Shown: positions 8,692 to 51,385 of the stretch, piece after piece
Layout of the letters: each line of letters opens with the position of its first letter
Position numbering within the stretch: position 1 is the stretch's first letter
IMG/VR virus record: IMGVR_UViG_3300045988_134250
Direction: 5' to 3' (one strand)
DNA: 64,000 bases
From: a virus
Taxonomy: Duplodnaviria > Heunggongvirae > Uroviricota > Caudoviricetes
Made by a program: the position numbers and the translations under genes
The notes under the pieces: generated by a model
The model's input: the letters and a program-made list of their open reading frames with translations, nothing else
Database searches by the model: none
What the model was told of the DNA's origin: nothing

Positions 8692-9315
8692 ATGAAGGAC
8701 GGTGTAGTGAAGTTAAGGGTTTTAGGGACCGCGCTCGCGGCTATGTTGGGATGCGTATCTGTTAATACAGCCAATGCAACTGCGTTACCTGCACAATTCA
8801 GGGCAGGGCAGCAGGTTATGAATAACGCTGGTGGGGATCATTCACAAGCGGCAATTATGGACTTTTGCAAGAGAGAGGGCATTCCATTACGGCCTGTTGG
8901 AACTCAGTTTATTGGTAAAACTGACTTTTGCGTTTTTGCATATACAGCATATCTGACGGACAAAGCTATAACAAAAACAGGTTATTCAACCAAAGATACT
9001 CTTTCCAGATTAAGTCAGGGATGGCAGCAATTCGAAGTGTATCGCCAGCAAGGATTAGGTGAGTTATTACAACCACTTTTTATGCTTGCGCTGGTGCCCG
9101 AGGGGCAGCAATTTTTGGTTAAAAAGGGAATGCTTCGCCAAAGTGATATTGCCGGGTTCGATAGCATGATGGCTTATGAGCGCAAACTAACCGAGCAGCG
9201 AAATAAAAAACCATCTGCTTCATGTGTGCAAAGTAAAACAGCAGAATACAGTGCAGTAGCCGGGCCTTTAGCCAAACAAATGGCAGAGCAATGGTGTAAA
9301 AAATACGGGCAATAA
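8692..9315 (+). CDS. Putative secreted protein
   Basis: 207 aa; N-terminal hydrophobic signal-like segment LRVLGTALAAMLGCVSVNTANA. Confidence 0.45.
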   Translation: MKDGVVKLRVLGTALAAMLGCVSVNTANATALPAQFRAGQQVMNNAGGDHSQAAIMDFCKREGIPLRPVGTQFIGKTDFCVFAYTAYLTDKAITKTGYSTKDTLSRLSQGWQQFEVYRQQGLGELLQPLFMLALVPEGQQFLVKKGMLRQSDIAGFDSMMAYERKLTEQRNKKPSASCVQSKTAEYSAVAGPLAKQMAEQWCKKYGQ

Positions 9316-9335: not shown

Positions 9336-9728
9336 TTGAAAAGATTGGCTATTGCTTTACTGGCGTCTTTCCCTTTGATCGCGAGCGCCGGAAATTTACA
9401 AGTTAAGTGCGGTAGGTTTGATATAAAAATCTATCCAGATGCCATATTTCTGAATGGGAATAAGGTTGATAACGCACACCGAAAAACTGAATCTGACGTA
9501 ATGAGCTATGTGTTCCAGGAGTATGCGGAGATGGGGGGAACTTACACGCTGTACTCGCTGGATGTTCCTTCTCGCGGTGATATGACATTATCCCATCAAT
9601 GGCAGAACGCCGATGGCGAAGCTCTGCGCGAGGTTAAAACAGAAAAATGTGGCACTTTCCATTCTTTTAAAGGGAAAGCGCCAAATGTTAAATCTGTGCT
9701 TGAAAAACAGCGCGCAGGTGAGCTTTAA
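9336..9728 (+). CDS. Putative secreted or periplasmic protein
   Basis: 130 aa; signal peptide MKRLAIALLASFPLIASAGN; convergent overlap with the minus-strand gene at 9725. Confidence 0.5.
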   Translation: MKRLAIALLASFPLIASAGNLQVKCGRFDIKIYPDAIFLNGNKVDNAHRKTESDVMSYVFQEYAEMGGTYTLYSLDVPSRGDMTLSHQWQNADGEALREVKTEKCGTFHSFKGKAPNVKSVLEKQRAGEL

Positions 9729-10036
9729 ACACCTTTAACCACGGAGATGCCGTTCCCTGCACGATAGCGGCGGGGAACGGAATTCTCCATCAGGTCACGA
9801 ATTACTCCCGCCTCATGTAGTTCCTCTGTTTCCCAGTATCTGTTTGTCACCAGATCGAGGCTGGCTATGACCTTGTGCCGGTCATTAGGCATAGCCAATT
9901 TTTCTGCTATAACCATCAGTGAAAACTCTTCATCCAGTAGGATTTGATACCAGACTTTTGACAGTTCCAACTCTCTAATGAGGGTGAAGCGCCGCTCAAG
10001 TGTGGCGGCAGAATAAGTGAAATCTATTTTTTTCAT
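9725..10036 (-). CDS. Hypothetical protein downstream of the Rha-like gene
   Basis: 103 aa ORF. Confidence 0.4.
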   Translation of the reverse strand: MKKIDFTYSAATLERRFTLIRELELSKVWYQILLDEEFSLMVIAEKLAMPNDRHKVIASLDLVTNRYWETEELHEAGVIRDLMENSVPRRYRAGNGISVVKGV

Positions 10037-10095: not shown

Positions 10096-11037
10096 TTAAC
10101 TAACAATCCAGTCCATAGCAATAACATCCTCTGGAGCTAAATCAATAGCATGGATTTTCCCGTCACGGATGGTGCGCCAGTGCTTTCGTGATCCACCTTC
10201 GGGCCACACCCATATACCTTCAGGCCAGGAAGAACGACGACACACTGTTGCGTATCCAGTCCTGATCTTCTCTCTGGCGGTATGTAGTGACAGATTATCC
10301 TTTGGGCTTTCAGGCACAGGATGGTGGATTGCCTGAAACATCCCCATCTTTGGATGATACCAGCGTTTATTGCGTGGTTCTGCCTCCGACATCACCTGCT
10401 TAAAGGCTTTCCGGAAGGGGGCAAGGGCCACAATGGAGCGTCGCGCAAGCAAGCCATCGGGGGTCAAAAACTCATGTGTATCGGTGGGAATCCGGTAAGC
10501 GTTGACAAGGTTACGGCATTTGGCTTCAGTCAGGCCACATTTCGCCGCCAGCTGGCGGTAGCCAATGTAGCCTTCCGGCATATTGCCTTTCTTGATTTGC
10601 TCAACGGTTTCAGCGACCCTGGACACTTGTGCCGATACCTCGGCTACCTGGGCATTTACGGCGTTGATCCGGCGTTCATGCTCAAGATGCATTTGCGCCA
10701 TTTCAGCCAGGATTTCGGCTTTTGATTTTAACTGTACCCGGGCATTCTCCAGTTCGCGCCAGCGGTCCACCAGCCGGGCGGTAAATTCGGGAGAGAGCTG
10801 CGCGACGACGACAATACTATCGCGCTTGCCTTGTTCGCCTTCGAAGAAATAGGCTTTTGTGTATTTATTAGGGCTAAGTGATTGATTATTCTCAACTGTA
10901 GCCAATGGCGTATGTTGGATAACTCCTTTAGCAACAAGTCTTTCGATGCTGCGTTTAACATCAGAGTGACGACTTCCCACCAGTTCCGCGATCTCAATAC
11001 TGGTCATTGTCGCTTTTTGAGAGATGGACAGATTCAT
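10096..11037 (-). CDS. Rha-family phage regulatory protein (antirepressor-like) with a C-terminal W-rich small domain
   Basis: N-terminus MTSIEIAELVGSRHSDVKRSIERLVAKG typical of Rha; C-terminus REKIRTGYATVCRRSSWPEGIWVWP...EDVIAMDWIVS shares the motif of ORFs 27497-27937, 35584-36159 and 49844-50044. Confidence 0.75.
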   Translation of the reverse strand: MNLSISQKATMTSIEIAELVGSRHSDVKRSIERLVAKGVIQHTPLATVENNQSLSPNKYTKAYFFEGEQGKRDSIVVVAQLSPEFTARLVDRWRELENARVQLKSKAEILAEMAQMHLEHERRINAVNAQVAEVSAQVSRVAETVEQIKKGNMPEGYIGYRQLAAKCGLTEAKCRNLVNAYRIPTDTHEFLTPDGLLARRSIVALAPFRKAFKQVMSEAEPRNKRWYHPKMGMFQAIHHPVPESPKDNLSLHTAREKIRTGYATVCRRSSWPEGIWVWPEGGSRKHWRTIRDGKIHAIDLAPEDVIAMDWIVS

Positions 11038-11252
11038 CAGTGCACCTCCACGCAGTTCATCGGCAGATTCCAGTAATTGAGGATCTCCATCGCATCAAGA
11101 GTGAAGCGAGCAGCAAAAATGCAGGGTTCTTCGGGAAGGTATGAGCGCGCCTCTGCTTCGGTAGCAGCCATGACGCAGATATACAGGTGTTTTTGGCAGG
11201 AATAGAAACGCCAGATAAATTCAGAATGAGTTGGGGTAGGGATAGTAGCCAT
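11037..11252 (-). CDS. Small protein preceding the Rha gene; paralog of 50748-50972
   Basis: 71 aa; shares SEFIWRFYSCQK / AATEAEARS with the 74 aa ORF upstream of the second Rha gene. Confidence 0.5.
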   Translation of the reverse strand: MATIPTPTHSEFIWRFYSCQKHLYICVMAATEAEARSYLPEEPCIFAARFTLDAMEILNYWNLPMNCVEVH

Positions 11253-12063
11253 ATTGGCAGCCTCCTTTGACTAAGTTAAGGAGCTACCGCGTGAGGTTCC
11301 AATCTCAATGGCGGTAGCACTGACTGGGTTGGAACTACCGGCGTCAAAGGGAACCGGCCTGCCTTTCGGCAGCCCAGCCAGCACTACCATTGATCTCTGA
11401 GCTAAACGCTAAGTATGGCTGTGCGATGGCATGACACAAAAAAAGACGCGTTCGGCGTCTGTGTCGCCTTTGACATTATCCGGGGTTCCAATCCCGGCAC
11501 CCGTTTTTCTAAGGTGCCGTAGAAATATACCCCACGATAATGCCAGGGCGCAACAGTCAGTATTTTATGCTTTGGCGGATTTCTTCCTGACTTGCTTGCA
11601 GGCGTAGGCCATTGCTTTAGCTTTCACTTCATCCAGCTTCCCGGTGATCACTTCTTTTCCGAGAGTGACAAACCAGTCATAGCAACCGCCAGTAATGTTC
11701 TTGATTTGAAAGTTGAGGTAGCGAACAGTCATTTTGACACCCCCGGCGCGAGCAAAGAATGCAGATTATCGCGTGAGTGGTGGAAGACGAGTGATGGGAA
11801 AAGACTGTAGTTGTTCATAGTGTTGTGACTCCTTGCTTTCGGAGCCGCCATCGACTGTTCCACGGTCTGGTGGCGGCGCAATAAAGGCTGGAACACCGTG
11901 AGTCAACGGGGGCTTTTCAGCCACCTATATTGCACCGCCATAGGTATGGCGGAGGCAATAATACGAAAAACTAAACAGTTTGTCTCAAAAAGTTGACCGG
12001 TGTGCCAATCGGTAGTGAATGTACATCGGAGAGTTTTTCAATTCAACTTAAAATGTTAGAAAA

Positions 12064-36602: not shown

Positions 36603-36678
36603 AACCAAATGTGGTGGCCCCTACCGGACTTGAACCGGTGACCGTGCGATTATGAGTCGCCCGCTCTAACCACTGAGC
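36603..36678 (-). tRNA. tRNA-Ile2-type (anticodon CAU; ileX-like)
   Basis: GGCCCTTTAGCTCAGTGGTTAGAGCGGGCGACTCATAATCGC...GGTTCAAGTCCGGTAGGGGCCACCA; near-identical to recalled E. coli ileX; encoded CCA. Confidence 0.8.
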
Positions 36679-37116
36679 TAAAGGGCCAGATTACTGTTAA
36701 TTACGCTTACGCTTTTTGCCAGAACCGCGTAAGGCTTTTGCCGCTTGCTCTACCCCGTATGCAACCACCAGCAGAAACAATAATGTCCACTCCGGGTTTT
36801 TATCGGCAAACGCCCAAAAATCCATCACTTGCAGCCACCTTTTAAGACAAAACGCCATTGCTGTTAGGTTGCGGTGCCGGGCGCCTCCCGGTGACGTTAA
36901 CCAGTTAACAATTAACGCCGGATCACTTATGGATTCTCGTTACGCCAGTAAAAAGACCACCTTTACTGTTTTAACTGTTCCGCGTGCGCTTAGCCGCATT
37001 CACCGCAATGGTAAGAGCATTTGGCTGACTGGGCGGCGATGACGCCTGTACGCATTTGGTGATCCGGTTCTGCTTCCGGCATTCGCTTAATTAGCCAAAT
37101 ACCCTTAATGTTGCAC

Positions 37117-37203
37117 TGGCGGAGAGTAATGGAATCGAACCATCATCGCTTGCGCAATGGGACGGTTTTCAAGACCGCTTGAGCACCATGCTCCCTACTC
37201 TCC
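37117..37203 (-). tRNA. tRNA-Ser (anticodon UGA), type II with long variable arm; atypical D-arm
   Basis: 7-bp acceptor GGAGAGT/ACTCTCC, anticodon stem-loop CGGTCTTGAAAACCG as in E. coli serT, T-arm GATGG-TTCGATT-CCATT, discriminator G, CCA. Confidence 0.6.
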
Positions 37204-37338
37204 CGTTATTGTGGCGACCGGTGCTGATCTCCGGCTTGCGGTTATTTCAGACTCTCACGGGCGTTTAATTGCCCCGCCGAACAGCTCTTTTCCGCAATAG
37301 CTGCAATGTCTTTCGCGCATCAGCCTGCGCATTCACCA

Positions 37339-37428
37339 CAATGTTGAGAACACTGGTTGTCACGCTGCAACGCAACATTTATTCGTAGATTGGGATATGA
37401 CCCCGTTACGCCAGTGTTCTCAACGTTG
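37339..37428 (-). repeat. Long hairpin element (18-bp stem, one mismatch) next to a degenerate tRNA 3'-end remnant
   Basis: caatgttgagaacactgg ... ccagtgttctcaacgttg; followed by gtgccggtta, which resembles the tRNA-Thr 3' end. Confidence 0.5.
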
Positions 37429-37575
37429 TAGTGCCGGTTACGGTTCCGGCCAGACCTCTTCCTCAACGGGGTGTTCTCCATACGGACTACCGTTTATTGG
37501 TCGTTCCTGCGGTTTATGTTGTGAAGCCAGATGCTTATCTTCTGGTTGCTTCAAAGAGCTGCACTTCATCACAAC

Positions 37576-37649
37576 GGTAAGAGCATTTATGGCTCGCATC
37601 GCGGGAAAAAGCCCACGGTAGAGAGTCGAACTCTACAAATGCTCTTACC
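37576..37649 (-). repeat. Long hairpin element (13-bp perfect stem, 48-nt loop) directly 3' of tRNA-Thr
   Basis: ggtaagagcattt ... aaatgctcttacc; the same 13-mer ggtaagagcattt recurs at 37012. Confidence 0.5.
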
Positions 37650-37657
37650 TGTTGTGT

Positions 37658-37733
37658 TGGTGCCGGTTAACGGGATCGAACCGCTGACCATTCGCTTACA
37701 AAGCGACTGCTCTACCAACTGAGCTAAACCGGC
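37658..37733 (-). tRNA. tRNA-Thr (anticodon UGU)
   Basis: GCCGGTTTAGCTCAGTTGGTAGAGCAGTCGCTTTGTAAGCGA...AGCGGTTCGATCCCGTTAACCGGCACCA; folds canonically. Confidence 0.8.
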
Positions 37734-37737
37734 AATT

Positions 37738-37824
37738 TGGTGGGGAGTGATGGAGTCGAACCACCCGAGTCGCAATGACAGTAGATTTACAGTCTACCCC
37801 GCTACCCCTACGGACTAACTCCCC
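37738..37824 (-). tRNA. tRNA-Tyr (anticodon GUA), long variable arm
   Basis: Acceptor GGGGAGT/ACTCCCC, anticodon arm GTAGA-CTGTAAA-TCTAC, T-arm GGTGG-TTCGACT-CCATC, CCA. Confidence 0.65.
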
Positions 37825-37829
37825 TAAAT

Positions 37830-37904
37830 TGGCGATGGTGGGTGGATTCGAACCACCGACCAGTTGGTTAACAGCCAACTGCTCTACCGCTGAGCTACAC
37901 CATC
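37830..37904 (-). tRNA. tRNA-Asn (anticodon GUU)
   Basis: GATGGTGTAGCTCAGCGGTAGAGCAGTTGGCTGTTAACCAACTGG...GGTGGTTCGAATCCACCCACCATCGCCA; acceptor GATGGTG/CACCATC. Confidence 0.75.
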
Positions 37905-42337: not shown

Positions 42338-45300
42338 TTAGGCCGCATCGGCGATTATTTTACGCAGTTCATCTACCGAGTAACGCGTAGATACCATCCA
42401 TGCAGGACGGTCAAAGTTCACATCAGCAACCGGGTTTGCTTCAAAATTCCAGAAACGTCCGCCAATCTTCTTAATCGCGTCTTTGGCGTTCCGTATTGTC
42501 GAGGAACCTGGTTGGTCGGCAATGAGATAAACCGCGCCAACGTCCTCGCTGACGCTCCACCAGCGCCCGCGAACACGCGCCTTAGCGCGAATCGGCTTAT
42601 CATTAACCACAATGATATAGTCATCATTCGCCGCTTCATCAGCTCTGGCTTCAGCCACTGCCGCCTGCTCTTCTCTTTTGCTTTCAGCCTGCTCAAGCCT
42701 TTCCGCGATCTCTGATTCAGTGGCCCCGCCGTTTTTCAGCGATACATAGTCCTGCCACGTTGCCGATTTGAGCGTATCCGGCAACTCATTCACATAGTCG
42801 CCGTCTTTCAACTCACGGGCGCGGCGGGTAGCCATTTCTACCAGGCGATTAACAGAAACAGCATCAGCAAAATCGTCCTTACTAATGTGTTTTTCATCAA
42901 ATGCATTGATGACAGCCCCCACCTTAATCCACTGTGCTGCCGGTGATTCCAGGGGGTTATCAGCCTGAACAATGGCGAGTTTCGCTCCATCTACCCCATT
43001 ATTCGCCAGCTGTTCCAATGCCGCCCATCCATCTGCATCACTGAGTGATTTATATTGCTCAAACAATGCATCGCGCCAGGCCACCAGCGCAGAACGTGTT
43101 TTTTCGATCTTCGCCTTAATTTTCGCGATCTTGACCTGATTAAACATCCGTTCAATATCATCGATATTGCTAAAGGCTTTCATCCTGCCCTGGAATAAAC
43201 GGTATGCCAGCACGGTCCTCCAGAATGATTCCAGACCTTCTCCGGACGGTTTGCGGAACAAGCTAAGAATATCTTCAGAAGTGACTTTATTAAGCGAACG
43301 ACCTGACAGACCACGCCCAGCCATCCAGTTTTCGAACTCATGGGCAACATCATCCATCGTTGCCTGTGCGCCCCATGCCTGCATTCCCTGGGTGTAATCA
43401 TACCCATACAATGCCTGGAGGAATCCCTCGCCGTCCACGATATTCAGCGGGTTATCACTGGCTTGTATTTTTGCCACTTCACGCTTCAGCGCCTCGTCGT
43501 TGCCATCAGGATATATCCATCGCTCAGGTGCTATATCCGATGCTCGCCCGATTTTTTGGCCTATCACGCCATCATAGGCCGATGACAGCGCGATCTGACC
43601 ATCATCTGTGCGATATGCCCAGTATTTAATAGCTGACCCACCGCCCCATGCATTACCAGGTTTACCAGCAATAACATTCATTACCCCATTGCGAATAGCA
43701 TCATAGAACTGATCGCGAGTAAGTATTGTTGATAGCTGGTGGCACTGAACACCACGCGCAGCCGTTGCGCGCGATTCAGCTACCCCCTCTTCAAAAGTTA
43801 CCGCTTCAATCACAGAGTCAAACGGCAATGTAACGATTGACCCCGGTGCTCGAGCGTAACGACTTGCTCTATCCAGCCAGGCGATACGGCAGAGGTATTG
43901 TGCTTTTTCACCGTCAATTTTTTCCACCCGGACAATCGCTGTTGTTTCGCGATCATCAATGACTGCACGGTAATAACTACCTTTATGCAACAGGATATTC
44001 TTGTCAGTGCGCATATATTCCTGTGGGTTCTGAATAACATCGATACTGATATCCAGCACACCAGACTTAATAGCGCGCTCCACATCACCACGAGAGCGTT
44101 TCATTATGGTATCCGCGTCTTTTGCCCTGGTGATCGCAAACCGCAGCACCCGCGCACGTTTTCTGTAGCTACTCAACTGCTCAAGCGCGTATTTTTGCCC
44201 ATTCCTGTTCGTACCCGCTTTTATCAGGTCGTCAAGATTGCGCTGGTAATACTCTATCTGTTCCATCGCGCTTTTCAGTTCTGTCTCCATCATGCCGATA
44301 TCTTTTCCGGCGGCGTTTGCCGCTTTCAGGTAGATATCGAGAGCATTGTTGGCCTCGCGCTGTGCTTTCAGTTTCAGACGTTCTTCACGCTCTTGCGCCT
44401 GGCGAGCCATGATTGCGCGGCGTTCTTCCGGGTTTGCCGCCAGCATAATGGCGCGTTCATCAGCATCATCCGCATCACCATTGGCGATCTCTGACATGTC
44501 GGATGTCATCACCATCTTGATCCAGTCTTTCTTACGTTTCAGCGTATCCAGACGGAAGTCGTCGAATGTGCCTTTGCCACAATAGTAGTGAACATTGACC
44601 TTTTCTTGCGGTGAACCTACGCGCGCACCGCGCCCATTTCGTTGGTCGATACTGGCTGGTGTCCAGGGTAGTGTCAGGTGGTGGATATCGGTTGTCCCGA
44701 TGTGCAGGTTAATACCTACTTCAGCCTTCTTGTTACAGATTATGATGCGCGTGCGACCTTCGTTATAGTCGGCGGCAATACCTTCCATGCCCTCAAGGCC
44801 AGCATCATTTTTAGCGGAGAGATAATCCTCATATTGGGCAAGTTTGCTGTAGTAGGTTTCCCATGCCCCTTCTTTGTATTCACCGTTTTTGTTTGGAGTA
44901 GGTTCGGTCGGCTTATTCACCTTCTTCAGCTTGATGCCACCAGCCTGGCTAACTGTCGTCGCATTGATAATGCCAATCTCCTGCTCCGGCATTTGCAGTG
45001 CACTGGCGATAATACGGCGCAGCTTCTGGTGCTGGGCTTTTTCATCAATAAAGACGATCTGCTTACCGTTCTTCAGACCTTCACGAAGATTTTCGATCAG
45101 CGCGGCATACTTCGGCGGGATGGGGTGCGACACCTGCTGCATATCAATGCCGGCAGCCGCAATGGCCTTCAGTATTTCAGCTTCCAGTTCAATGCTGGCA
45201 CGTATTTCAACATGCGTCGGATGTTCACTAAAAGCGGTCTTCACTACCTTGCTGGTACGCGTACTGACCAGCCCGCCAGCGCCGTCTTCCTCGGCCTCAT

Positions 45301-48300
45301 CAACATCATCTGCCACTTTACCGCCAGCTACTTTTGGCAAGGCATCAGCAATAGCTTTTACCTGGTCTGCAAGCTCAACGGGGAACTGGAATGTAATCGC
45401 ACTGGCATACAGATCCGGGTCTATAGCAACCTTATCCATGTCACGGATGATGGAGAAGATGAAATCATCCGGTTTGTCGTTAGTGATATGCCCGTTTTCA
45501 TCGACTGTCAGCTCATCATTGCGACTTAACTCCTGAGCACGCTTACGAAGCTCTTCATAAGCAGTCTCCTGCTCCCCTGTCATCGGGATCTGCAAGGTGT
45601 TCTCGATGATGTCGGGAATTTTAACCGTCGCTCCGACATCTGCAGCAGTCTTCAGAGTGGTCCAACGATGGAAAATACCACGCAGGCCGTCAAGGTTCTG
45701 GAAGCCCACCAGCCCCTGCTTCTCTTCCACTTCCCCGGAAATTTTCTGGACCTGAACTGTGGCTGTTTTGCCAAACACACGAACGAAATCATCAGGCGTA
45801 ATGATGCCCATACGCATCCACTCTTCCTGCGGAATGACAGTAGACAGCATGTTGAAGGCATCAATCGGACTGTTCACCAGCGGTGTTGCCGTCAGCATGA
45901 CTACACCACGCCCGTTGTTGCGTTTCATCATGTACGCAGCTTTTACAGCCATGTCGCGGGCCATCTTGGATACTGCCGGGTTAGGCAAATATGCCAGTTG
46001 TCCCGCTTCACGCCCGGCATTAAAGGAGTTGCGGTAGTTATGCCCCTCGTCGGCAATCACGCTATCGAAGTTCATATCCTCAAAGTAAGGGATATTCTGC
46101 TTCTTCGTTGTACCGGTATTCGCGGCCTGATCCTTAATCTTGTTCTTCTTCTGCGCATCACGGTGTTTACCGGACGCCAGGTCAAGACGCCCCATTTCCA
46201 CAGCATTAAAGACAGCTTGCTGTGAGTTCTCCTCGATGGTTTTTTCTCGTAGCGGGATAGACGCGAATTGTTCTTTTGTCATGATGACCGTTCGCCAATT
46301 TGACGACGGGATCATGTTCATACGCTGAACGATAACGGCGCTGGAGGACTCTTTCACAACATTTCTGGTAAGAGGCTGCCCGTTACTGTCGAGGCGTGGT
46401 TCGCCATTTTCATCAAGCACCGGCGCGGTCAGAATATTTCCGCTGTCATCACGAACTTCATCCAAACCGATAAACATCATATTGGCGAAGGCATCAGCAC
46501 TGTAGAAACTCTGTGCCTCGTGATACCAGTTCTGATAAACCGCCTTCGGAACAACAATACACGTGCGTTTAGTGCGACCTGTTTCGAAGTTATACGCCTC
46601 AAGCGCAAGCGCGGTCGTGGTTTTACCCAGCCCGGTACCAAATCCCATGATGCCACGCCCATCTTCTGACAAGCGCCGAACTTCTTCATTCTGATAAGTC
46701 AGAGGAATGCGCTTTCCACTAATCCCTTCCAGGCCAAGCGGTGCGTCAGAATGTGTGAACGGAATGAAACCATTGAATGCGTCGTTATAGTCACGGGCTA
46801 TCTGATCCGCCTGCGGGTGGGTGCGTAACCAGTCGTTAAAGCTAACTTCCAGTTGAGCAATTTTATCCAGGTACTCGTTAGCGTTCTGCCCACGCGGTTT
46901 AACACCGTTCAGGTAGTTTTCTAACTGGTTCAGGAAGCCGTCTTTATTGTTGGCCTTCTTGAACTCATTCCCGTTTTTGCCGTTTACGGTTCGTAGCTGA
47001 TAGCCGGTAAATACCCCGTCCTTACCTTCGTAATCGTCCGGAGATACCAGAATGCCATCGACGACCTTCAGATCAGGTTCAGTGTACTTAAACTCGTCAT
47101 AGCCCTGCTCTGCCAGGAACTCTTTTATCAAGCGGCGATCCAGCCAGCGGGCATTCAGATTAACGGTGACTTTATTTAGTGGCGTGAAAATGCGTTTCTC
47201 TTCGATTTTCGCCAACTGACGCTCAAAGTTCGCTTTCTGCTCACCTGTTGACGCATCACGCCAGCCCACCAGCAGTGCTGTTTTGGTTGCAACATCGCCG
47301 CTGGTGGCGCGGTCCATCGGCAGCAGACAGCCATACCCATCAATAGCGATATCATCAAATTTCGCCAGGTATTCAAGGACCGCGTCGTCGTCCTCTGGCA
47401 GTTCACCAGCAAACGCCTCACGAAAGTCGCCCAGCGTTATAGGATTAAGGGCTACATCACTAAAAAGATGTGCTATCACTTGTTCAGGACGCGTAAAGTC
47501 AATACCGGCAGCACCATCCGTTACATCAAGTCGCCCTGCCAGAAGGTCAGAAGTGGAACCATCCTGTTTCACATTGCCAGTGAACGTCATCCAGTTTTTA
47601 GCGCCAGCTTCAGCAAGCCCATTCAGCTTAATCGCGTGCGGTGGTCCATACTTCGCAACTTCTGCTGCCGCCAAGCGGGATGCATCTGCCAGTTTGTCAT
47701 CAACGTTCACCCCCAGGTTACGCAAATCAAGTGCCTTGTTGATCAACTGACCTATCAGTGCACCGCGCATAACGCGCTCCCTGTCTTTTTCTCGCTGCTT
47801 GCCAGCAAAGCGAATCATTGCTGCCACTTCATCACTGACAACCGATGGATAGTCGGACGCGATCGCCGATATCTGGTCCCATGACAAAGCCAGAATCCCG
47901 TTTGTTGACTGGAACGCGATCTGCAGATCGCCAAACGTCGAAACACCATATCGACTTACATCAAGCGCGGAGGATTTGGTTGTCGTGTCCTGAACCCATT
48001 TCAGACCATCAAACTCATGCCAGATACCGCCTACAAGGCGTTTATCGCCCACTTTCGCGCCCTGCCATGCCTGAGTAGTTACGCCGAGCAAATCCCAATT
48101 GATGCGACTATCAAAGCGACGAGATAGCGCGGTTTTCATCGACTCATTGGATACACGACCGTCTTTTTTCACCACTAGGGTATTGCGGAAGCTGGTACGT
48201 TCCATGTCGCCGTAAACAAATCGCTTCCCTTCGGTTGTAAACCATTTCCCTTTGAGGAAGGTAACCCAAAGGACGTTTGCCGATTTGAGCGTCGAATCAT

Positions 48301-49174
48301 CCGTATCGGGGATCATCTCCAGGAAGGCTTCCGGGTGTTTACGCAATACCCATACGTCCACCACGGTATCTGTACCTGATTCACTGAACGTACCGGAAGG
48401 CATACGATGCGCGCCCAAAAATTCCGCTTTACGGCTGACTTTATCGCGCAATTTTTTGTATTTCGTACCATCAGTCATGCCATTCGGCACCACCAATACG
48501 ATAAGCCCACCAGGTTTAACCTTGTCGATCGTGCGCAGCACAAAGTAATTGCCAACGTTCTTCTCGTTTGCATATGCCGGATCAAGCCCTGCAACGCCGG
48601 AACGGCCTTCGCCAAACGGTACGTTACCAACAGCGTGGTCATACATTGCGTCTTTCGCCGCCAGAGCCTCAAACGCCCCAATGTTCACATCGTCTTCCGG
48701 GTGCAACAGCTGGTTGATTCGACCGGAGATCGGAGACAGCTCGGCGCTGGTCATTATCATTCCCTGCCGTTTTGTCTCCTGGAAAATACCCGTGCCAGCT
48801 GATGGTTCCAGTACGTGACCGCCATCAATACCGTAGTCAGCAAACAGCTCCCATATACCTTCAGCCATAAACTGTGGCGTGTAGTATTCGTATTGGCTGC
48901 CCTCACCATCTGTCAGGCCGCCTTCACCGGTATACCCAGCAAGAATCTGACGTTGTTCGTCAGTTAATTTCGCCCCATCGAAGCCGGGCGGAAGGGAATT
49001 AAGAAGATTTACTGCGGCATTGTTTGCTGCCCGGCGTGTTTTCTGAATACTGACGCCATCGGCTTTCCTGACGCCAAAGGTCGCAACAGCACGTAATTTA
49101 TGCAACCGACTAACAATTTCAATCAGTTCGCCTAAGCTGGAGGCTTCACTGATTGAATGAAGTAGTTTGTCCAA
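42338..49174 (-). CDS. darB: Giant DarB-like antirestriction protein: N6-adenine methyltransferase domain fused to SF2 helicase domain
   Basis: 2278 aa; MTase motifs EPSAGTGIF and GNVPFG; helicase motifs GFGTGLGKTTTA and IADEGHNYRN; size and architecture match P1 DarB. Confidence 0.7.
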   Translation of the reverse strand: MDKLLHSISEASSLGELIEIVSRLHKLRAVATFGVRKADGVSIQKTRRAANNAAVNLLNSLPPGFDGAKLTDEQRQILAGYTGEGGLTDGEGSQYEYYTPQFMAEGIWELFADYGIDGGHVLEPSAGTGIFQETKRQGMIMTSAELSPISGRINQLLHPEDDVNIGAFEALAAKDAMYDHAVGNVPFGEGRSGVAGLDPAYANEKNVGNYFVLRTIDKVKPGGLIVLVVPNGMTDGTKYKKLRDKVSRKAEFLGAHRMPSGTFSESGTDTVVDVWVLRKHPEAFLEMIPDTDDSTLKSANVLWVTFLKGKWFTTEGKRFVYGDMERTSFRNTLVVKKDGRVSNESMKTALSRRFDSRINWDLLGVTTQAWQGAKVGDKRLVGGIWHEFDGLKWVQDTTTKSSALDVSRYGVSTFGDLQIAFQSTNGILALSWDQISAIASDYPSVVSDEVAAMIRFAGKQREKDRERVMRGALIGQLINKALDLRNLGVNVDDKLADASRLAAAEVAKYGPPHAIKLNGLAEAGAKNWMTFTGNVKQDGSTSDLLAGRLDVTDGAAGIDFTRPEQVIAHLFSDVALNPITLGDFREAFAGELPEDDDAVLEYLAKFDDIAIDGYGCLLPMDRATSGDVATKTALLVGWRDASTGEQKANFERQLAKIEEKRIFTPLNKVTVNLNARWLDRRLIKEFLAEQGYDEFKYTEPDLKVVDGILVSPDDYEGKDGVFTGYQLRTVNGKNGNEFKKANNKDGFLNQLENYLNGVKPRGQNANEYLDKIAQLEVSFNDWLRTHPQADQIARDYNDAFNGFIPFTHSDAPLGLEGISGKRIPLTYQNEEVRRLSEDGRGIMGFGTGLGKTTTALALEAYNFETGRTKRTCIVVPKAVYQNWYHEAQSFYSADAFANMMFIGLDEVRDDSGNILTAPVLDENGEPRLDSNGQPLTRNVVKESSSAVIVQRMNMIPSSNWRTVIMTKEQFASIPLREKTIEENSQQAVFNAVEMGRLDLASGKHRDAQKKNKIKDQAANTGTTKKQNIPYFEDMNFDSVIADEGHNYRNSFNAGREAGQLAYLPNPAVSKMARDMAVKAAYMMKRNNGRGVVMLTATPLVNSPIDAFNMLSTVIPQEEWMRMGIITPDDFVRVFGKTATVQVQKISGEVEEKQGLVGFQNLDGLRGIFHRWTTLKTAADVGATVKIPDIIENTLQIPMTGEQETAYEELRKRAQELSRNDELTVDENGHITNDKPDDFIFSIIRDMDKVAIDPDLYASAITFQFPVELADQVKAIADALPKVAGGKVADDVDEAEEDGAGGLVSTRTSKVVKTAFSEHPTHVEIRASIELEAEILKAIAAAGIDMQQVSHPIPPKYAALIENLREGLKNGKQIVFIDEKAQHQKLRRIIASALQMPEQEIGIINATTVSQAGGIKLKKVNKPTEPTPNKNGEYKEGAWETYYSKLAQYEDYLSAKNDAGLEGMEGIAADYNEGRTRIIICNKKAEVGINLHIGTTDIHHLTLPWTPASIDQRNGRGARVGSPQEKVNVHYYCGKGTFDDFRLDTLKRKKDWIKMVMTSDMSEIANGDADDADERAIMLAANPEERRAIMARQAQEREERLKLKAQREANNALDIYLKAANAAGKDIGMMETELKSAMEQIEYYQRNLDDLIKAGTNRNGQKYALEQLSSYRKRARVLRFAITRAKDADTIMKRSRGDVERAIKSGVLDISIDVIQNPQEYMRTDKNILLHKGSYYRAVIDDRETTAIVRVEKIDGEKAQYLCRIAWLDRASRYARAPGSIVTLPFDSVIEAVTFEEGVAESRATAARGVQCHQLSTILTRDQFYDAIRNGVMNVIAGKPGNAWGGGSAIKYWAYRTDDGQIALSSAYDGVIGQKIGRASDIAPERWIYPDGNDEALKREVAKIQASDNPLNIVDGEGFLQALYGYDYTQGMQAWGAQATMDDVAHEFENWMAGRGLSGRSLNKVTSEDILSLFRKPSGEGLESFWRTVLAYRLFQGRMKAFSNIDDIERMFNQVKIAKIKAKIEKTRSALVAWRDALFEQYKSLSDADGWAALEQLANNGVDGAKLAIVQADNPLESPAAQWIKVGAVINAFDEKHISKDDFADAVSVNRLVEMATRRARELKDGDYVNELPDTLKSATWQDYVSLKNGGATESEIAERLEQAESKREEQAAVAEARADEAANDDYIIVVNDKPIRAKARVRGRWWSVSEDVGAVYLIADQPGSSTIRNAKDAIKKIGGRFWNFEANPVADVNFDRPAWMVSTRYSVDELRKIIADAA

Positions 49175-49325: not shown

Positions 49326-49811
49326 ATGGCAAACATTGAACCTCGCTGGCTAATTGAAGCCCGTAAGCACATTGGCTTGACTGAAATAAAAGGCGCTAAA
49401 CACAACCCTGAAATCGTTCAGTTCTGGCGCGACATCAAGCGCGGCGGAATTAAAGACGATGAAACGCCGTGGTGCGCAGCATTTGTCGGTGCAATGCTGG
49501 AACGTGTAGGCATTCGCTCAACAAGATTTGAGTCGGCAAAATCCTATCTGGATTGGGGCGAGAAATTAGATACACCGGCATACGGATGTATCGTTGTATT
49601 TACCCGCGTAGGCGGTGGGCACGTAGGCTTCGTTGTCGGACGCCGCGCCAATGGCGATCTGCTTGTCCTGGGTGGGAACCAGGGGGATGCGGTTAATATT
49701 CGCGCATTCCCAACATCAAGAGTGTCTGGCTATCGCTGGCCTGCTGGCGAACCACGCAATACCGCCCTGTTACCAGTCGGAGACGCAGCAACCTCAACTA
49801 ATGAGGCATGA
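49326..49811 (+). CDS. Putative Cys/His peptidase-like protein (CHAP / TIGR02594-like)
   Basis: 161 aa; PWCAAFV and GGGHVGFVV candidate catalytic Cys/His; family assignment from memory. Confidence 0.4.
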   Translation: MANIEPRWLIEARKHIGLTEIKGAKHNPEIVQFWRDIKRGGIKDDETPWCAAFVGAMLERVGIRSTRFESAKSYLDWGEKLDTPAYGCIVVFTRVGGGHVGFVVGRRANGDLLVLGGNQGDAVNIRAFPTSRVSGYRWPAGEPRNTALLPVGDAATSTNEA

Positions 49812-49835
49812 AAAAAGCCCCGGCCAGGCCGGGGC
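49811..49835 (-). terminator. Rho-independent terminator downstream of the second Rha module
   Basis: gccccgg-ccagg-ccggggc with A-run on the plus strand (U-run on the minus-strand RNA). Confidence 0.55.
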
Positions 49836-49843
49836 ATCACGCT

Positions 49844-50044
49844 TCAAGTCACGATCCAATCATTACCGACTATATCAGCCGTCGATAAATCAACTTCCCG
49901 GATCTGGAGTCCATTAATACAAAACCATCCGGTAGTAGAGTAATTATCAGGCCAGGCCCATACACCAACACTCCATGCTTTACGGCGGCACACTTCAGCC
50001 TGTCCTTCCCTGATTTTTTTTACCGCCTGCATGATGTCCATCAC
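49844..50044 (-). CDS. Stand-alone W-rich small domain protein (DUF2829-like), coupled to Rha
   Basis: 66 aa; AVKKIREGQAEVCRRKAWSVGVWAWP ... ADIVGNDWIVT; homologous to the C-terminal domain fused to Rha at 10096-11037. Confidence 0.5.
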   Translation of the reverse strand: MMDIMQAVKKIREGQAEVCRRKAWSVGVWAWPDNYSTTGWFCINGLQIREVDLSTADIVGNDWIVT

Positions 50045-50748
50045 TCACCTCCCCAACCGATCACCTGGAATTGCCCCATTTTGGGGTGATACCAGCGTTT
50101 TCCTCGGTGTTCAGCCTCCGACATCATCCGGTTAAAAGCATTCATGAAGGGAGATAAGGCCACGATGGAACGACGCGACAATACCCCCTCTGGAGTCAAA
50201 AACTCATGTGTATCGGTGGGAATCCGGTAAGCGTTGACAAGGTTTCGGCATTTGGCTTCAGTCAGGCCGCATTTCGCCGCCAACTGGCGGTAGCCAATGT
50301 AGCCTTCCGGAATATTGCCTTTCTTTATTTGCTCGACGGTTTCAGCGACCTGGCTAACCTTTGACTCAACAGCATGAATCAGCTTTTGCTGCTGAACTGC
50401 ATTCGCAGCCATTGCAGCGATCATCTCTATTTCGGTCAACGGCTGGCGTACTTGTTCTTCCAGTTCGCGCCAGCGGTCCACCAGCCGGGCGGTGAATTCG
50501 GGAGAGAGCTGCGCGACGACAATGATGCTGTCTCGTTTGCCTTGCTCGCCTTCGAAGACGTAAGCCTCAACGCCACGACGCAATCCTAAGTTATTGATTT
50601 TTTCGAAAACAGCCATTGGCGGTTTTCGGATAATGCTTCGAGCAACCATACGCTCAATACTACGTTTAACGTCAGAGTGTTGGCTTCCCACCAGCTCCGC
50701 AATCTCAATGCTGGTCATTGATAGTTTTTCGAGAATGCAGATACCCAT
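50041..50748 (-). CDS. Rha-family phage regulatory protein (second copy, without fused C-terminal domain)
   Basis: 235 aa; MTSIEIAELVGSQHSDVKRSIERMVAR; paralog of 10096-11037. Confidence 0.75.
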   Translation of the reverse strand: MGICILEKLSMTSIEIAELVGSQHSDVKRSIERMVARSIIRKPPMAVFEKINNLGLRRGVEAYVFEGEQGKRDSIIVVAQLSPEFTARLVDRWRELEEQVRQPLTEIEMIAAMAANAVQQQKLIHAVESKVSQVAETVEQIKKGNIPEGYIGYRQLAAKCGLTEAKCRNLVNAYRIPTDTHEFLTPEGVLSRRSIVALSPFMNAFNRMMSEAEHRGKRWYHPKMGQFQVIGWGGE

Positions 50749-50972: not shown

Positions 50973-51385
50973 AGTTACGGCCTCACTAACAGGTTTAACA
51001 ACCTGCCACCCGCTGTCAAACAGGTGGCAGGACGTGACAGGGTTGACAGACTGGCGTTAGTGAAACCAGCAGGCCGAAGCCTCCCCATCACGCCCCACCA
51101 TAATTCGGGCGTAACGCGGTTTACGGACACAAAAATACCGCAATATCGGAAATCTGCGGTTGTCCGCACTAACATTCAGGCTGTCAAACCCGGTCGCAGA
51201 ATTTGCTACGACGGCATGAATATAAGCCTGAAAACATGGAAGATCAACTAAAAATTTCAGCAATGGATGACTTCAGTCGATGATGCAGATCATACATTCC
51301 GTTTTAGAAACAGCAAATTAATTTTCTAACATAAATAATCGGCCGAGCATTTTCCGATCATTGGGATGTTTTGTAGACACACAGG

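Follow-up and report, generated by a model that had tools for sequence, protein, structure and literature searches.

The 64,000-nucleotide stretch of DNA that we analyzed (hereafter, the window) is a D6-type phage-plasmid of E. coli with two separately controlled copies of the P1 immI switch. We propose that these copies are paralogous, regulatorily independent operons of the immI type that each also make a small tryptophan-rich domain (W domain), and we give this explanation as a whole a probability of about 0.5. The window matches the E. coli plasmid pB2C_96 (NZ_CP035876.1) at 100% identity, and across both modules it is 90-95% identical to phage D6. The same layout is found in D6, with one fused (orf82) and one split (orf18 and orf17) copy. 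The predicted Tad2-like identity of the W domain and its C4 gating appear not to have been described so far.

Organization and homology of the two modules

Both modules are encoded on the minus strand. A 71-aa ORF (11252-11037) precedes a 313-aa ORF (11037-10096) in module A, and module B comprises a 74-aa ORF (50972-50748), a 235-aa ORF (50748-50041) and a small ORF (50044-49844). The Rha parts of the two modules are identical at 159 of 237 positions (67%, E 2e-116) and the leader proteins at 22 of 51 (43%, E 1e-14). Thus, the ORF positions and a homology far beyond chance bear out the original prediction of two paralogous modules at these sites. The same prediction held that one W-rich domain is fused in module A and separate in module B, and the two are indeed homologous on alignment (residues 249-313 of the fused protein versus the small ORF; 26/65 identical or 40%, E 3e-18). 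The leader motif said to be shared (SEFIWRF...AATEAEARS) is exact in module A but reads PEFIWRF...AATEKEARS in module B. Nor are duplicated modules unusual, as had been claimed. The duplication is already known from the annotation of D6, a second module has been noted for pYU39_89 (PMC6799933), and P1-like plasmids often have a second C4/icd/ant module; in many of them, and in phage RCS47, an isrK/C4/icd/ant module lies between pacB and c1.

Module A contains the following elements:

11439..11517, minus strand: isrK-like leader RNA (Rfam RF01394 isrK, 61.3 bits against a cut-off of 50)
11491-11485, minus strand: decoy a1, TTGGAAC, complementary to C4-A (computed)
11474-11467, minus strand: decoy b1, GTCAAAGG, complementary to C4-A (computed)
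11460-11444, minus strand: intrinsic terminator of the leader, stem AGACGCCGAACGCGTCT then a T run (terminator scan)
11307..11394, minus strand: C4-A, a C4-type antisense RNA (Rfam RF01695, 77.1 bits against 45, E 2.4e-13, full length)
11302-11296, minus strand: target a2, TTGGAAC, exact complement of C4-A positions 60-66
11271-11264, minus strand: target b2, GTCAAAGG, exact complement of C4-A positions 45-52
11037..11252, minus strand: Icd-like leader A, 71 aa (NCBIfam NF033153 phage_ICD_like, 49.4 bits against 25; phrog_1426, E 3.7e-41)
10096..11037, minus strand: fused Rha-family regulator and putative antirepressor, 313 aa (PF09669; phrog_63)
10099..10293, minus strand: W domain A, residues 249-313 of the fused protein, predicted minimal Tad2-like fold (40% identity to the stand-alone ORF; phrog_7385, E 3.5e-16)

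The corresponding elements of module B are:

51247-51219, minus strand: promoter-like site just 5' of the leader (promoter scan)
51173..51225, minus strand: leader (Rfam RF03163 c4-a1b1, 55.2 bits against 46.7)
51187-51181, minus strand: decoy a1, TTGACAG, complementary to C4-B and aligned to the annotated a1 of P1
51173-51167, minus strand: decoy b1, GTTAGTG, complementary to C4-B and aligned to the annotated b1 of P1
51020..51105, minus strand: C4-B antisense RNA (Rfam RF01695, 68.8 bits against 45, full length)
51019-51013, minus strand: target a2, TTGACAG, computed complement at the position of the annotated a2 of P1
50990-50983, minus strand: target b2, GTTAGTGA, computed complement at the position of the annotated b2 of P1
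50748..50972, minus strand: Icd-like leader B, 74 aa (NCBIfam NF033153, 38.4 bits against 25)
50041..50748, minus strand: Rha-family regulator and putative antirepressor B, 235 aa, without W domain (PF09669; phrog_63)
49844..50041, minus strand: stand-alone W protein W_B, 65 aa from ATG 50041, predicted minimal Tad2-like fold, TGATG-coupled to Rha B
49817..49835, minus strand: strong intrinsic terminator closing the operon, GCCCCGGCCTGGCCGGGGC then T6 (terminator scan, 8/8 GC pairs)

The terminator of operon B is shared tail-to-tail with a convergent gene for a CHAP-domain hydrolase. The Icd-like leaders, the C4 antisense RNA of each module and the Tad2 fold of the W domain had no place in the original prediction.

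Regulatory RNAs and their specificity

Both modules have the makeup of a P1 immI-type operon: a C4 RNA in the leader, paired a1b1 and a2b2 sites, and a coupled Icd-like ORF. In the minimum free energy fold of C4-A (-46.5 kcal/mol), the parts that are complementary to the a and b sites (C4-A positions 60-66 and 45-52) lie in the loop and in single-stranded stretches. The downstream target region spans 11264..11302 (minus strand) in module A and 50983..51019 (minus strand) in module B. In both, b2 abuts or overlaps the Shine-Dalgarno sequence of the leader gene, running into AAGGAGG in module A, as read from the sequence, and adjoining the GAGG of icd in module B. Furthermore, the stop codon of each leader gene overlaps the start of the Rha gene (TGATG). 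Module A combines a match to the isrK model with an intrinsic terminator 5' of the small ORF and an antirepressor-like gene. Leader B is 59% identical to P1 Icd (BLASTP, E 8e-26), and the leader region of module B aligns with the P1c4 (former P51b) promoter of P1. The similarity of module B to P1 stops upstream of the -10 region. No match with up to three mismatches to the P1 C1 operator consensus (ATTGCTCTAATAAATTT) was found within the window, although this consensus is that of P1 and may not be the one recognized by the D6 C1. An operator-like sequence (ATTGCTGAAATTTTTAG) upstream of module B occurs only once in the window.

Each C4 RNA has exact 7-8-nt complements both upstream and downstream of itself in its own module, and none of 7 nt or more in the other module. 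The two RNAs are thus predicted from their complementarity to pair only with their own targets. The recognition sequences (UUGGAAC and GUCAAAGG in module A; UUGACAG and GUUAGUGA in module B) differ between the modules, which suggests that the two switches are orthogonal. C4-B and its sites are identical to those of P1, and an alignment with P1 and P7 shows that P7 differs in both recognition segments. Because its recognition sequences are those of P1, module B should respond to a P1 that resides in the same cell.

We propose that each operon is read as one transcript that carries, in order, the a1/b1 decoys, C4, the a2/b2 targets, the Icd-like leader, Rha and the W domain. On the model of P1 and of the IsrK system of Gifsy-1, the C4 RNA cut from this transcript would pair with a2/b2 and block translation of the leader. 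The block would, in turn, silence the downstream genes through lost translational coupling and polarity. When C4 is absent, as in a fresh infection, or is titrated by a1/b1, the leader, Rha and the W domain would be made together and in a roughly fixed proportion.

Rha-family proteins

Rha A (32.7 bits) and Rha B (30.6 bits) match the Pfam model Phage_pRha (PF09669) by a thin margin over its threshold of 29.9 bits, and the match (residues 11-98) covers the whole model. Both are also assigned to phrog_63, 'anti-repressor Ant' (E 2.5e-62 for Rha A and 1.2e-46 for Rha B), and both carry the RefSeq name 'Rha family transcriptional regulator'. The fused protein starts with a winged helix (residues 11-98), followed by a helix or coiled coil (83-149), a conserved, Roi-like middle domain (~151-237), an 11-residue linker and the W domain. 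A single-sequence model of the full-length protein was poor (pLDDT 56) and confident only in the winged helix-turn-helix and the coiled coil, with a pLDDT above 90 for helix 83-149. At least 118 distinct homologues (299-314 aa) have the fused form. Rha/Roi proteins such as HK022 Roi and P22 rha are known as DNA-binding regulators, not as repressor binders. The position of the Rha genes, analogous to that of P1 ant, and the PHROG name make them putative antirepressors.

Structure of the W domain

Phages use the protein Tad2 to mop up the alarm molecules of bacterial immunity. The structure model of W_B (pLDDT 90.6) has the Tad2 fold, an alpha1 helix with an antiparallel beta-sheet, and all of its top 11 Foldseek matches in the PDB were Tad2 proteins, with a TM score below 0.45 for the next match. 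The top named matches in BFVD were all DUF2829/Tad2-like and included proteins of 63-75 aa. At the level of fold, the model shows the W domain to be a stripped-down member of the Tad2/DUF2829 group. The W domain of module A and the modelled W_B fall into one narrow family.

Profile searches gave a fainter signal. W_B scored 15.1 bits (E 0.034) against Pfam PF11195, under the gathering score of 25, and the fused protein did not match this model. Five of six members of the W family matched PF11195 at E values up to 1 (best, 1.3e-9), and one relative (P0008) carries PF11195; its own comparison with the PDB was uninformative. The best PDB sequence matches of the W family profile were HgmTad2 and AcrIIA7 (E 0.16-0.63). 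An exhaustive HMMER search with a three-sequence W profile returned eight matches, one of them spurious (P0009), and word-index searches for W relatives returned 3 and 14. D6 was the sole match of the module A W domain in a tblastn search of the phage collection, and no PADLOC defence-system model matched any of the seven proteins tested. By these searches the W subfamily is narrow, and sequence alone gives no bridge to canonical Tad2.

Tad2 and W proteins share the motifs R-R/K-x-x-W and D-x-x-x-x-D-W-I-V. We compared the pocket in sequence alignments to HgmTad2 and AcrIIA7 at the sites W25, N26, W73 and D79 of SPO1 Tad2 and W21, N22, G23, W87 and D93 of HgmTad2. In the HMMER alignments, two family-invariant residues of the W domain stand opposite pocket residues of HgmTad2, W24 opposite W21 and D57 opposite D93. 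W21 and D93 contact the ligand, and the mutants W21A/N22A and S90A/T92A/D93A lose gcADPR binding (10.1101/2023.11.15.567273). In the alignments, the W domain has S or P at the place of HgmTad2 N22 and lacks a counterpart of the neighbouring G23. At the second tryptophan of the pocket (W87 in HgmTad2, W73 in SPO1), the D6-type copies have V or I and the stand-alone relatives P0005, P0006 and P0008 an aromatic residue, Y or F. Also absent from the W domain is the beta2-beta3 insertion, which makes tetramer formation uncertain. This insertion provides the dimer helix in SPO1 Tad2 and the cyclic-dinucleotide site in HgmTad2. The ligands of the Tad2 family are varied and include 3'cADPR, His-ADPR, N7-cADPR, cUMP and cyclic dinucleotides (10.1101/2025.08.24.671296). 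A divergent pocket is, therefore, compatible with a sponge function. AcrIIA7/HgmTad2 neither bound nor inhibited Cas9 when re-tested (10.1101/2023.11.15.567273).

Function of the W domain

Fusion and fission of the same domain pair had been taken to imply that Rha and the W domain act together. This does not follow, since two Raoultella-type phage-plasmids (L008 and L010) have the W gene directly behind a1b1 and the C4 RNA, without Icd and without Rha. In these loci, a1, b1, C4, a2 and b2 lie immediately 5' of the W start and the W gene is itself the direct target of C4, which argues for an independent C4-gated cargo rather than an obligate partner of Rha. The constant partner of the W domain is the C4-gated expression slot, not Rha. 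Furthermore, W_B is 100% identical in loci whose Rha_B genes are only ~90% identical in nucleotides, and no co-variation is thus visible.

The W domain most likely serves as a small-molecule sponge whose production is confined to times of lifted immunity. By analogy with Tad2, our best guess, a tentative one at somewhat less than even odds, is an oligomer that sequesters a nucleotide-derived immune signal of the host. Such an anti-defence sponge would be delivered exactly when the lysis-promoting regulator is made and kept off in the lysogen. On this view, the fusion in module A would have arisen secondarily from two neighbouring genes that were already co-translated, and would not be the sign of a shared biochemical step.

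We consider it rather unlikely that the W domain serves the antirepressor as a module for protein-protein contacts, that is, an oligomerization cap or a surface contacting the D6 C1 or another target, with the Tad2 fold reused as a scaffold and the same complex built from two chains in the split form. Such a role is consistent with the location of the W domain beside Rha, fused or translationally coupled, in more than 100 plasmids and with the long coiled coil of the fused protein, which would bring the C-termini together. P1 Coi is a small C1 inactivator, and the W domain is about its size (70 aa in RCS47). In L008 and L010, the W gene fills the 'ant' slot of the immI operon, and its product could by itself act as the antirepressor of these loci. 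Of the four key pocket residues of SPO1 Tad2 and HgmTad2, two are lost, and the dimer-helix insertion is absent (10.1101/2023.05.01.538930). However, the W and D that contact the ligand in Tad2 are among the residues invariant across the subfamily, no Tad2-like protein is known to act through protein binding, and the lack of co-variation between W_B and Rha_B also argues against a protein interface.

It is improbable that the W domain is a sensor that binds a host immune or stress nucleotide and switches the attached or co-translated Rha, thereby tying the choice between lysis and lysogeny to whether the cell is in alarm. A ligand-binding fold (here, that of Tad2) fused to a DNA-binding or antirepressor protein has the classic layout of a one-component sensor. 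Both fused and split forms exist, and the fusion and the TGATG coupling imply a fixed 1:1 production. Yet C4 is predicted to silence the operon in the lysogen, exactly when sensing matters, the W domain occurs without any Rha in L008 and L010, and a sensor domain of the Tad2 type had no precedent in the literature searched. A long shot would be a receptor, not a sponge, through which an alarm nucleotide derived from TIR or CD-NTase enzymes of the host allosterically switches the fused or co-translated Rha. The prophage would then read antiviral messengers to choose between lysogeny and lytic escape via two orthogonal antisense channels, one of them common with P1.

These proposals for the W domain concern a gene that is intact in module B. 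The separate small ORF exists as predicted, but the 66-aa form with a 4-nt overlap (GTG 50044) is less likely than a 65-aa product from ATG 50041, which has a consensus GGAGG 6 nt upstream, overlaps the Rha B stop codon by 1 nt (TGATG), and is the start annotated in RefSeq and in the D6 record. A check for a frameshift or stop at the junction indicated that the split is not an artefact. The ORF is intact in D6 and in five sampled plasmids and uninterrupted in 110 plasmid records of E. coli, Salmonella and Shigella (92-100% aa identity), and what sets the junction apart from that of module A is a linker segment of 33 nt rather than an indel of a single base. It is, therefore, highly improbable that the split copy is a decaying, frameshifted fused gene or a sequencing error with an unexpressed 65-aa ORF, despite an A8 run within the ORF (50021-50014), a few database variants that look frameshifted (P0003 and P0007) and a dN/dS across six loci not clearly below 1 (0-3 synonymous versus 2-8 non-synonymous differences, too few to decide); the junction anatomy and conservation largely refute it, as does the strong terminator directly after W_B.

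Implications

Phage-plasmids of the D6 type are frequent among E. coli, Salmonella and Shigella of human, livestock and food origin, and we found these modules in more than 100 complete plasmids. Should the W domain prove to be a working sponge, a Tad2-type anti-defence function would for the first time be linked to a lysis-lysogeny switch and placed under antisense-RNA immunity control, and the domain would be a very small (65-aa) natural minimal version of the fold. The immI 'ant' slot would then be a general place to seek infection-specific anti-defence cargo. If the W domain is only a structural appendage, the gain is a modest one in annotation: two C4 RNAs, the Icd-like leaders and the assignment of a Tad2-like fold to D6 orf17 and the C-terminus of orf82. 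Regardless of its role, two orthogonal C4 circuits in one replicon offer a natural test bed for antisense-RNA specificity, and the identity of C4-B with the P1 RNA allows cross-immunity between co-resident phage-plasmids to be tested.

Comparison with known systems

The closest model is the immI operon of P1 (a1b1 - c4 - icd - ant1/ant2), which has the same order of elements, with b2 over the ribosome site of the leader gene and the leader stop overlapping the start of the next gene, as here. Its C4 RNA is identical to C4-B and acts on the same type of a/b targets. Unlike in P1, the effector belongs to the Rha family and is by sequence a non-orthologous replacement, without detectable similarity to Ant1/Ant2 (E 0.2 for Rha-W versus P1 Ant1 in BLASTP), and a Tad2-like domain comes in addition. 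The operon here is downstream of repL, whereas that of P1 is upstream of kilA-repL. Furthermore, the window has two such operons, which differ in C4 specificity, and lacks matches to the P1 C1 operator consensus.

The gene order of module A agrees with the description of the isrK-orf45-anrP locus of Gifsy-1 in Salmonella (PMC4825925). Like Gifsy-1, it has an isrK-family leader with its own terminator, followed by a stable, structured RNA and then a small leader ORF to which an antirepressor-like gene is coupled. The short IsrK RNA of Gifsy-1 activates translation of the read-through mRNA in trans (PMC4825925), which, in our own interpretation, fits IsrK as a decoy for a C4-like RNA. Module A differs in that it is on a plasmid prophage, its leader is a 71-aa Icd-like protein rather than one of 45 aa, and its effector carries a Tad2-like domain.

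The second module of P1-like plasmids (such as phage RCS47 and p1506-2) is also an extra immI-like operon beside the canonical one, and its isrK-C4-icd part is 87-97% identical to module A. It differs, however, in its location between pacB and c1 and in its KilAC-type antirepressor without a W domain. The loci of phage D6 (NC_050154), orf82/orf83 and orf17/orf18/orf19, are orthologous (90% and 95% nucleotide identity, respectively). In the D6 record, orf17 is a 'hypothetical protein', the C4 RNAs are unannotated, and orf84 is annotated on the plus strand across the C4-A region.

The W domain resembles the Tad2 sponges (SPO1 Tad2, HgmTad2/AcrIIA7 and ModTad2; PF11195/DUF2829) as a small phage-borne protein that keeps the W and D of the pocket. 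In contrast to them, it has 65 residues, scores below the Pfam threshold and lacks the beta2-beta3 insertion, and it has a Rha regulator as its fusion or coupling partner and is predicted to be gated by an antisense RNA.

Paralogous modules with fused and split W domains

The window encodes two modules in which a small leader protein precedes a Phage_pRha-family regulator (Rha) and a tryptophan-rich domain of about 65 residues (the W domain). Their ORFs and antisense RNAs are all on the minus strand:

11394-11307, minus: C4 antisense RNA A (C4-A; Rfam, 77 bits, full-length), directly upstream of the leader
11252-11037, minus: module A leader ORF, 71 aa (ORF table)
11037-10096, minus: module A large ORF (fused Rha-W), 313 aa, overlapping the 71-aa ORF by 1 base (ORF table)
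51105-51020, minus: C4 antisense RNA B (C4-B; Rfam, 69 bits, full-length), directly upstream of the leader
50972-50748, minus: module B leader ORF, 74 aa (ORF table)
50748-50041, minus: module B Rha ORF (Rha_B), 235 aa (ORF table)
ending at 49844, minus: module B small ORF (W_B; ORF table)

The observation behind the original prediction, two paralogous modules with a fused and a split W domain, is real and was accurately described; its interpretation holds only in part. In pairwise comparisons the large proteins share 67% identity across 237 residues (E 2e-116), the leaders are 43% identical (E 1e-14) and the small ORF aligns end to end with residues 249-313 of the fused protein (40% identity, E 3e-18), values far above chance level that argue for homology between the modules. 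The split ORF, described as a 66-aa frame with a 4-nt overlap, is a genuine separate ORF, but its start is most likely the ATG at 50041 (65 aa) rather than the GTG at 50044. This ATG follows a GGAGG at a distance of 6 nt, shares its A with the Rha_B TGA stop and is the start annotated in both RefSeq and the record of the plasmid prophage D6. The same TGATG overlap occurs at all coding junctions of both modules.

E. coli plasmid pB2C_96 (NZ_CP035876.1) matches both module regions at 100% identity; D6 matches them at 90% (A) and 95% (B) and has the same layout (orf83-orf82 fused, orf19-orf18-orf17 split). The W_B ORF is unbroken in D6 and five sampled E. coli/Salmonella plasmids, whose Rha_B genes are just 89-91% identical, and tblastn returned uninterrupted full-length matches in 110 plasmid records (92-100% amino acid identity). 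Furthermore, what distinguishes the A junction from the B junction is a linker segment of 33 nt (HHPVPESPKDN) and not a single-base indel. This conservation and the junction difference rule out a sequencing frameshift as the origin of the split copy, the explanation that the original prediction had itself raised; the one soft spot is the dN/dS analysis of W_B, for which six loci held too few substitutions for a useful estimate. The 223 W-domain places found by tblastn in 122 plasmid records mean that most plasmids have both forms. Fused proteins (118 distinct sequences of 299-314 aa, from contigs of ~90 kb) have a well-conserved W part (mean major-allele frequency 0.94), and the fused form is as stable as the split one.

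An A8 homopolymer run within W_B (50014-50021, minus; codons 8-10) could be a slippage-prone site or a mere source of sequencing errors; two database variants (P0003 and P0007) resemble frameshifted W_B ORFs. Beside module A, ORFs of 130 aa (9336-9728, plus) and 207 aa (8692-9315, plus) with signal-peptide-like N-termini replace D6 orf80, and positions 9700-9812, the initial 113 nt of the sequence used as module A query, have no match in D6. pB2C_96 and D6 differ slightly in cargo here.

Predicted C4 circuits of the two operons

Both leaders match NCBIfam NF033153 (49 bits for A and 38 for B; cut-off 25) and are Icd-like in sequence. Rfam identified an upstream decoy element in each module, isrK in A and c4-a1b1 in B. 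By computed complementarity, C4-A pairs via UUGGAAC and GUCAAAGG, and C4-B via UUGACAG and GUUAGUG(A), each with a pair of sites on either side of it; the b site downstream of C4 extends into the Shine-Dalgarno sequence of the leader gene in both modules. Neither RNA has a complement of at least 7 nt in the other module. An all-GC hairpin of 8 bp, followed by a T run, terminates operon B. Together, the Icd-like leaders, C4 RNAs, a/b sites and coupling junctions indicate two complete operons of the P1 immI type (a1b1-c4-icd-ant), with antisense specificities predicted to be orthogonal.

RefSeq annotates 11271-11390 (minus; also 2583-2702 of p1506-2) as a 39-aa 'ash family protein' CDS in many P1/D6-like plasmids; the region overlaps C4-A (11307-11394), and D6 annotates orf84 there on the plus strand. 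Since the C4 RNA gene in this stretch scores highly, both protein calls are probably translations of the RNA gene.

Rha-family proteins

Both large proteins exceed the Pfam Phage_pRha threshold by a narrow margin while covering the full model, and both match phrog_63 'anti-repressor Ant'. They have no homology to P1 Ant1 (E 0.2); the antirepressor label thus comes from position and annotation and is putative. Allele comparison reveals mosaic Rha genes. Both loci have a hypervariable stretch (~residues 22-63) in the N-terminal winged helix, covering its wing and recognition part, with 75-81% identity in alleles otherwise conserved at 95-99%, which suggests diversification of target specificity or frequent recombination. 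This cassette occupies 50460-50690 and 10750-10980, at about codons 22-63 of both genes. The Roi-like middle domain is near-invariant (95-99% within a locus, 84% between A and B), whereas the coiled coil is strongly divergent between A and B (47% identity, 7-residue indel), which would prevent mixing of the two paralogues.

The W domain and its predicted role

The W family is narrow, with about 14 clusters in 5.8 billion proteins, 8 matches among 1.8 billion representatives and D6 as the sole match in a phage collection. The window W protein matches the Pfam model of Tad2, a phage anti-Thoeris sponge fold (DUF2829), below threshold (15 vs 25 bits), and the window W proteins fall outside PF11195 by sequence; five of six W-family members match the model (best 1.3e-9), and the best PDB sequences for a family profile are HgmTad2 and AcrIIA7. 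An AlphaFold model from a 12-sequence alignment is confident (pLDDT 90.6). Foldseek against the PDB returned Tad2 for all 11 top matches (TM 0.72-0.78), then noise, and the named top matches in a viral structure library were all DUF2829/Tad2-like, including 63-75-aa and multi-domain proteins. The agreement of both searches makes the modelled Tad2 fold a solid assignment.

We mapped published pocket residues (10.1101/2023.05.01.538930; 10.1101/2023.11.15.567273) via HMMER alignments. The W subfamily keeps the pocket loop tryptophan (Hgm W21, SPO1 W25) and aspartate (Hgm D93, SPO1 D79) as invariant residues, but has S or P for the asparagine, lacks the next glycine and has V/I (D6-type copies) or Y/F (stand-alone relatives) for the second tryptophan. 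The beta2-beta3 insertion is likewise missing; SPO1 Tad2 uses it for its dimer helix and HgmTad2 for its cyclic-dinucleotide site. Tad2 homologues differ widely in the ligands they bind (10.1101/2025.08.24.671296), and such a pattern would therefore fit a change of ligand just as well as a loss of ligand binding. A third W variant on Salmonella sp. plasmid NZ_MK356558.1 (35585-35773; 168.8 kb) shares 53% identity with W_B and falls between types A and B.

Two stand-alone W proteins (P0005, also recorded from a Raoultella ornithinolytica plasmid, and P0006) are encoded on phage-plasmid contigs of ~74-91 kb (L008 and L010), directly behind c4-a1b1 and a C4 RNA:

L008 3252-3791: a1b1, C4 RNA and W-domain gene, without Icd or Rha
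L010 3246-3707: a1b1, C4 RNA and W-domain gene, without Icd or Rha

Neither locus has an Icd-like ORF or a Rha gene, and in L010 a2 and b2 lie immediately 5' of the W start codon. This arrangement points to an autonomous, C4-gated W product, the recurring element being an expression slot rather than a partnership with Rha. The C4 RNAs of both contigs have a third b-loop specificity (CACUCAAGA) and the P1 a site UUGACAG.

The most probable reading, at roughly 0.4 still tentative, is that a W oligomer sequesters a nucleotide immune signal. By analogy with P1 immI and IsrK, C4 in a lysogen would occlude the leader ribosome site and Icd, Rha and W would not be made; entry into a naive cell, or titration of C4 by the decoy, would allow all three to be made together. 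The anti-defence function of W would then operate during infection or induction but be silent in the lysogen. The main competitor, doubtful yet worth weighing, makes W a protein-interaction module of the antirepressor. The homology of W in fused and split forms had been read as evidence that Rha and W act together; this Rosetta-stone inference is weakened by the C4-gated W genes without Rha and by W_B being identical in loci whose Rha_B genes differ by ~10% in nucleotide sequence, although Rha and W may still bind each other. That W is a ligand sensor gating Rha is improbable. Signal sequestration by W would link an anti-defence fold to the lysis-lysogeny switch, a concrete and cheaply testable proposal in which the function is predicted and the ligand pocket is incomplete.

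Contigs L016 and L017 encode, at 2501-2746, an 81-aa linker and W-domain remnant (P0016, 'transcriptional regulator'). A tyrosine recombinase gene lies shortly upstream, and the remnant resembles a Rha-W truncated by rearrangement. Operon B lies tail-to-tail with a CHAP/TIGR02594 peptidoglycan hydrolase gene (49326-49811, plus), sharing its terminator. Next to the hydrolase gene, a 2278-aa DarB-like methyltransferase-helicase (42338-49174, minus), part of the P1 anti-restriction set, places the W gene beside other counter-defence genes. Rfam also identified a cluster of four tRNA genes (36615-37904, minus), as in D6 and P1.

Relation to known systems

Our literature search found no paper pairing Tad2/DUF2829 with an antirepressor or Rha, and D6 orf17 is annotated 'hypothetical'. 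Both the Tad2-like nature of the W domain and its control by C4 in fused, coupled and stand-alone form thus appear to be undescribed. The analysis adds two predicted orthogonal C4 circuits, the Icd-like character of the leaders and the recurrence of a minimal Tad2-like domain as C4-gated cargo.

The duplication itself, previously thought unusual, is already known from D6-like and P1-like phage-plasmids. The D6 record annotates both Icd/Ant pairs, and a second c4/icd region was noted in D6-like pYU39_89 (PMC6799933). Furthermore, hundreds of P1-like plasmids, and phage RCS47, carry the isrK-C4-icd part of module A at 87-97% identity, with a different effector and site:

RCS47 100905-106319 (L013): second isrK/C4/icd module driving a KilAC-type antirepressor, between pacB and c1
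p1506-2 (L014): second module of the same kind and position

In RCS47 the RNA and icd-like gene of this module are without annotation. Module A is of the IsrK type, having an intrinsic terminator between decoy and C4. It matches Gifsy-1 isrK-orf45-anrP, a locus whose short RNA acts in trans to activate translation of the read-through mRNA (PMC4825925). Module B matches a canonical P1-type immI, with a leader 59% identical to P1 Icd and, in an alignment with P1 and P7, a C4 RNA and all four a/b sites identical to those of P1, whereas in P7 both recognition segments and the targets differ.
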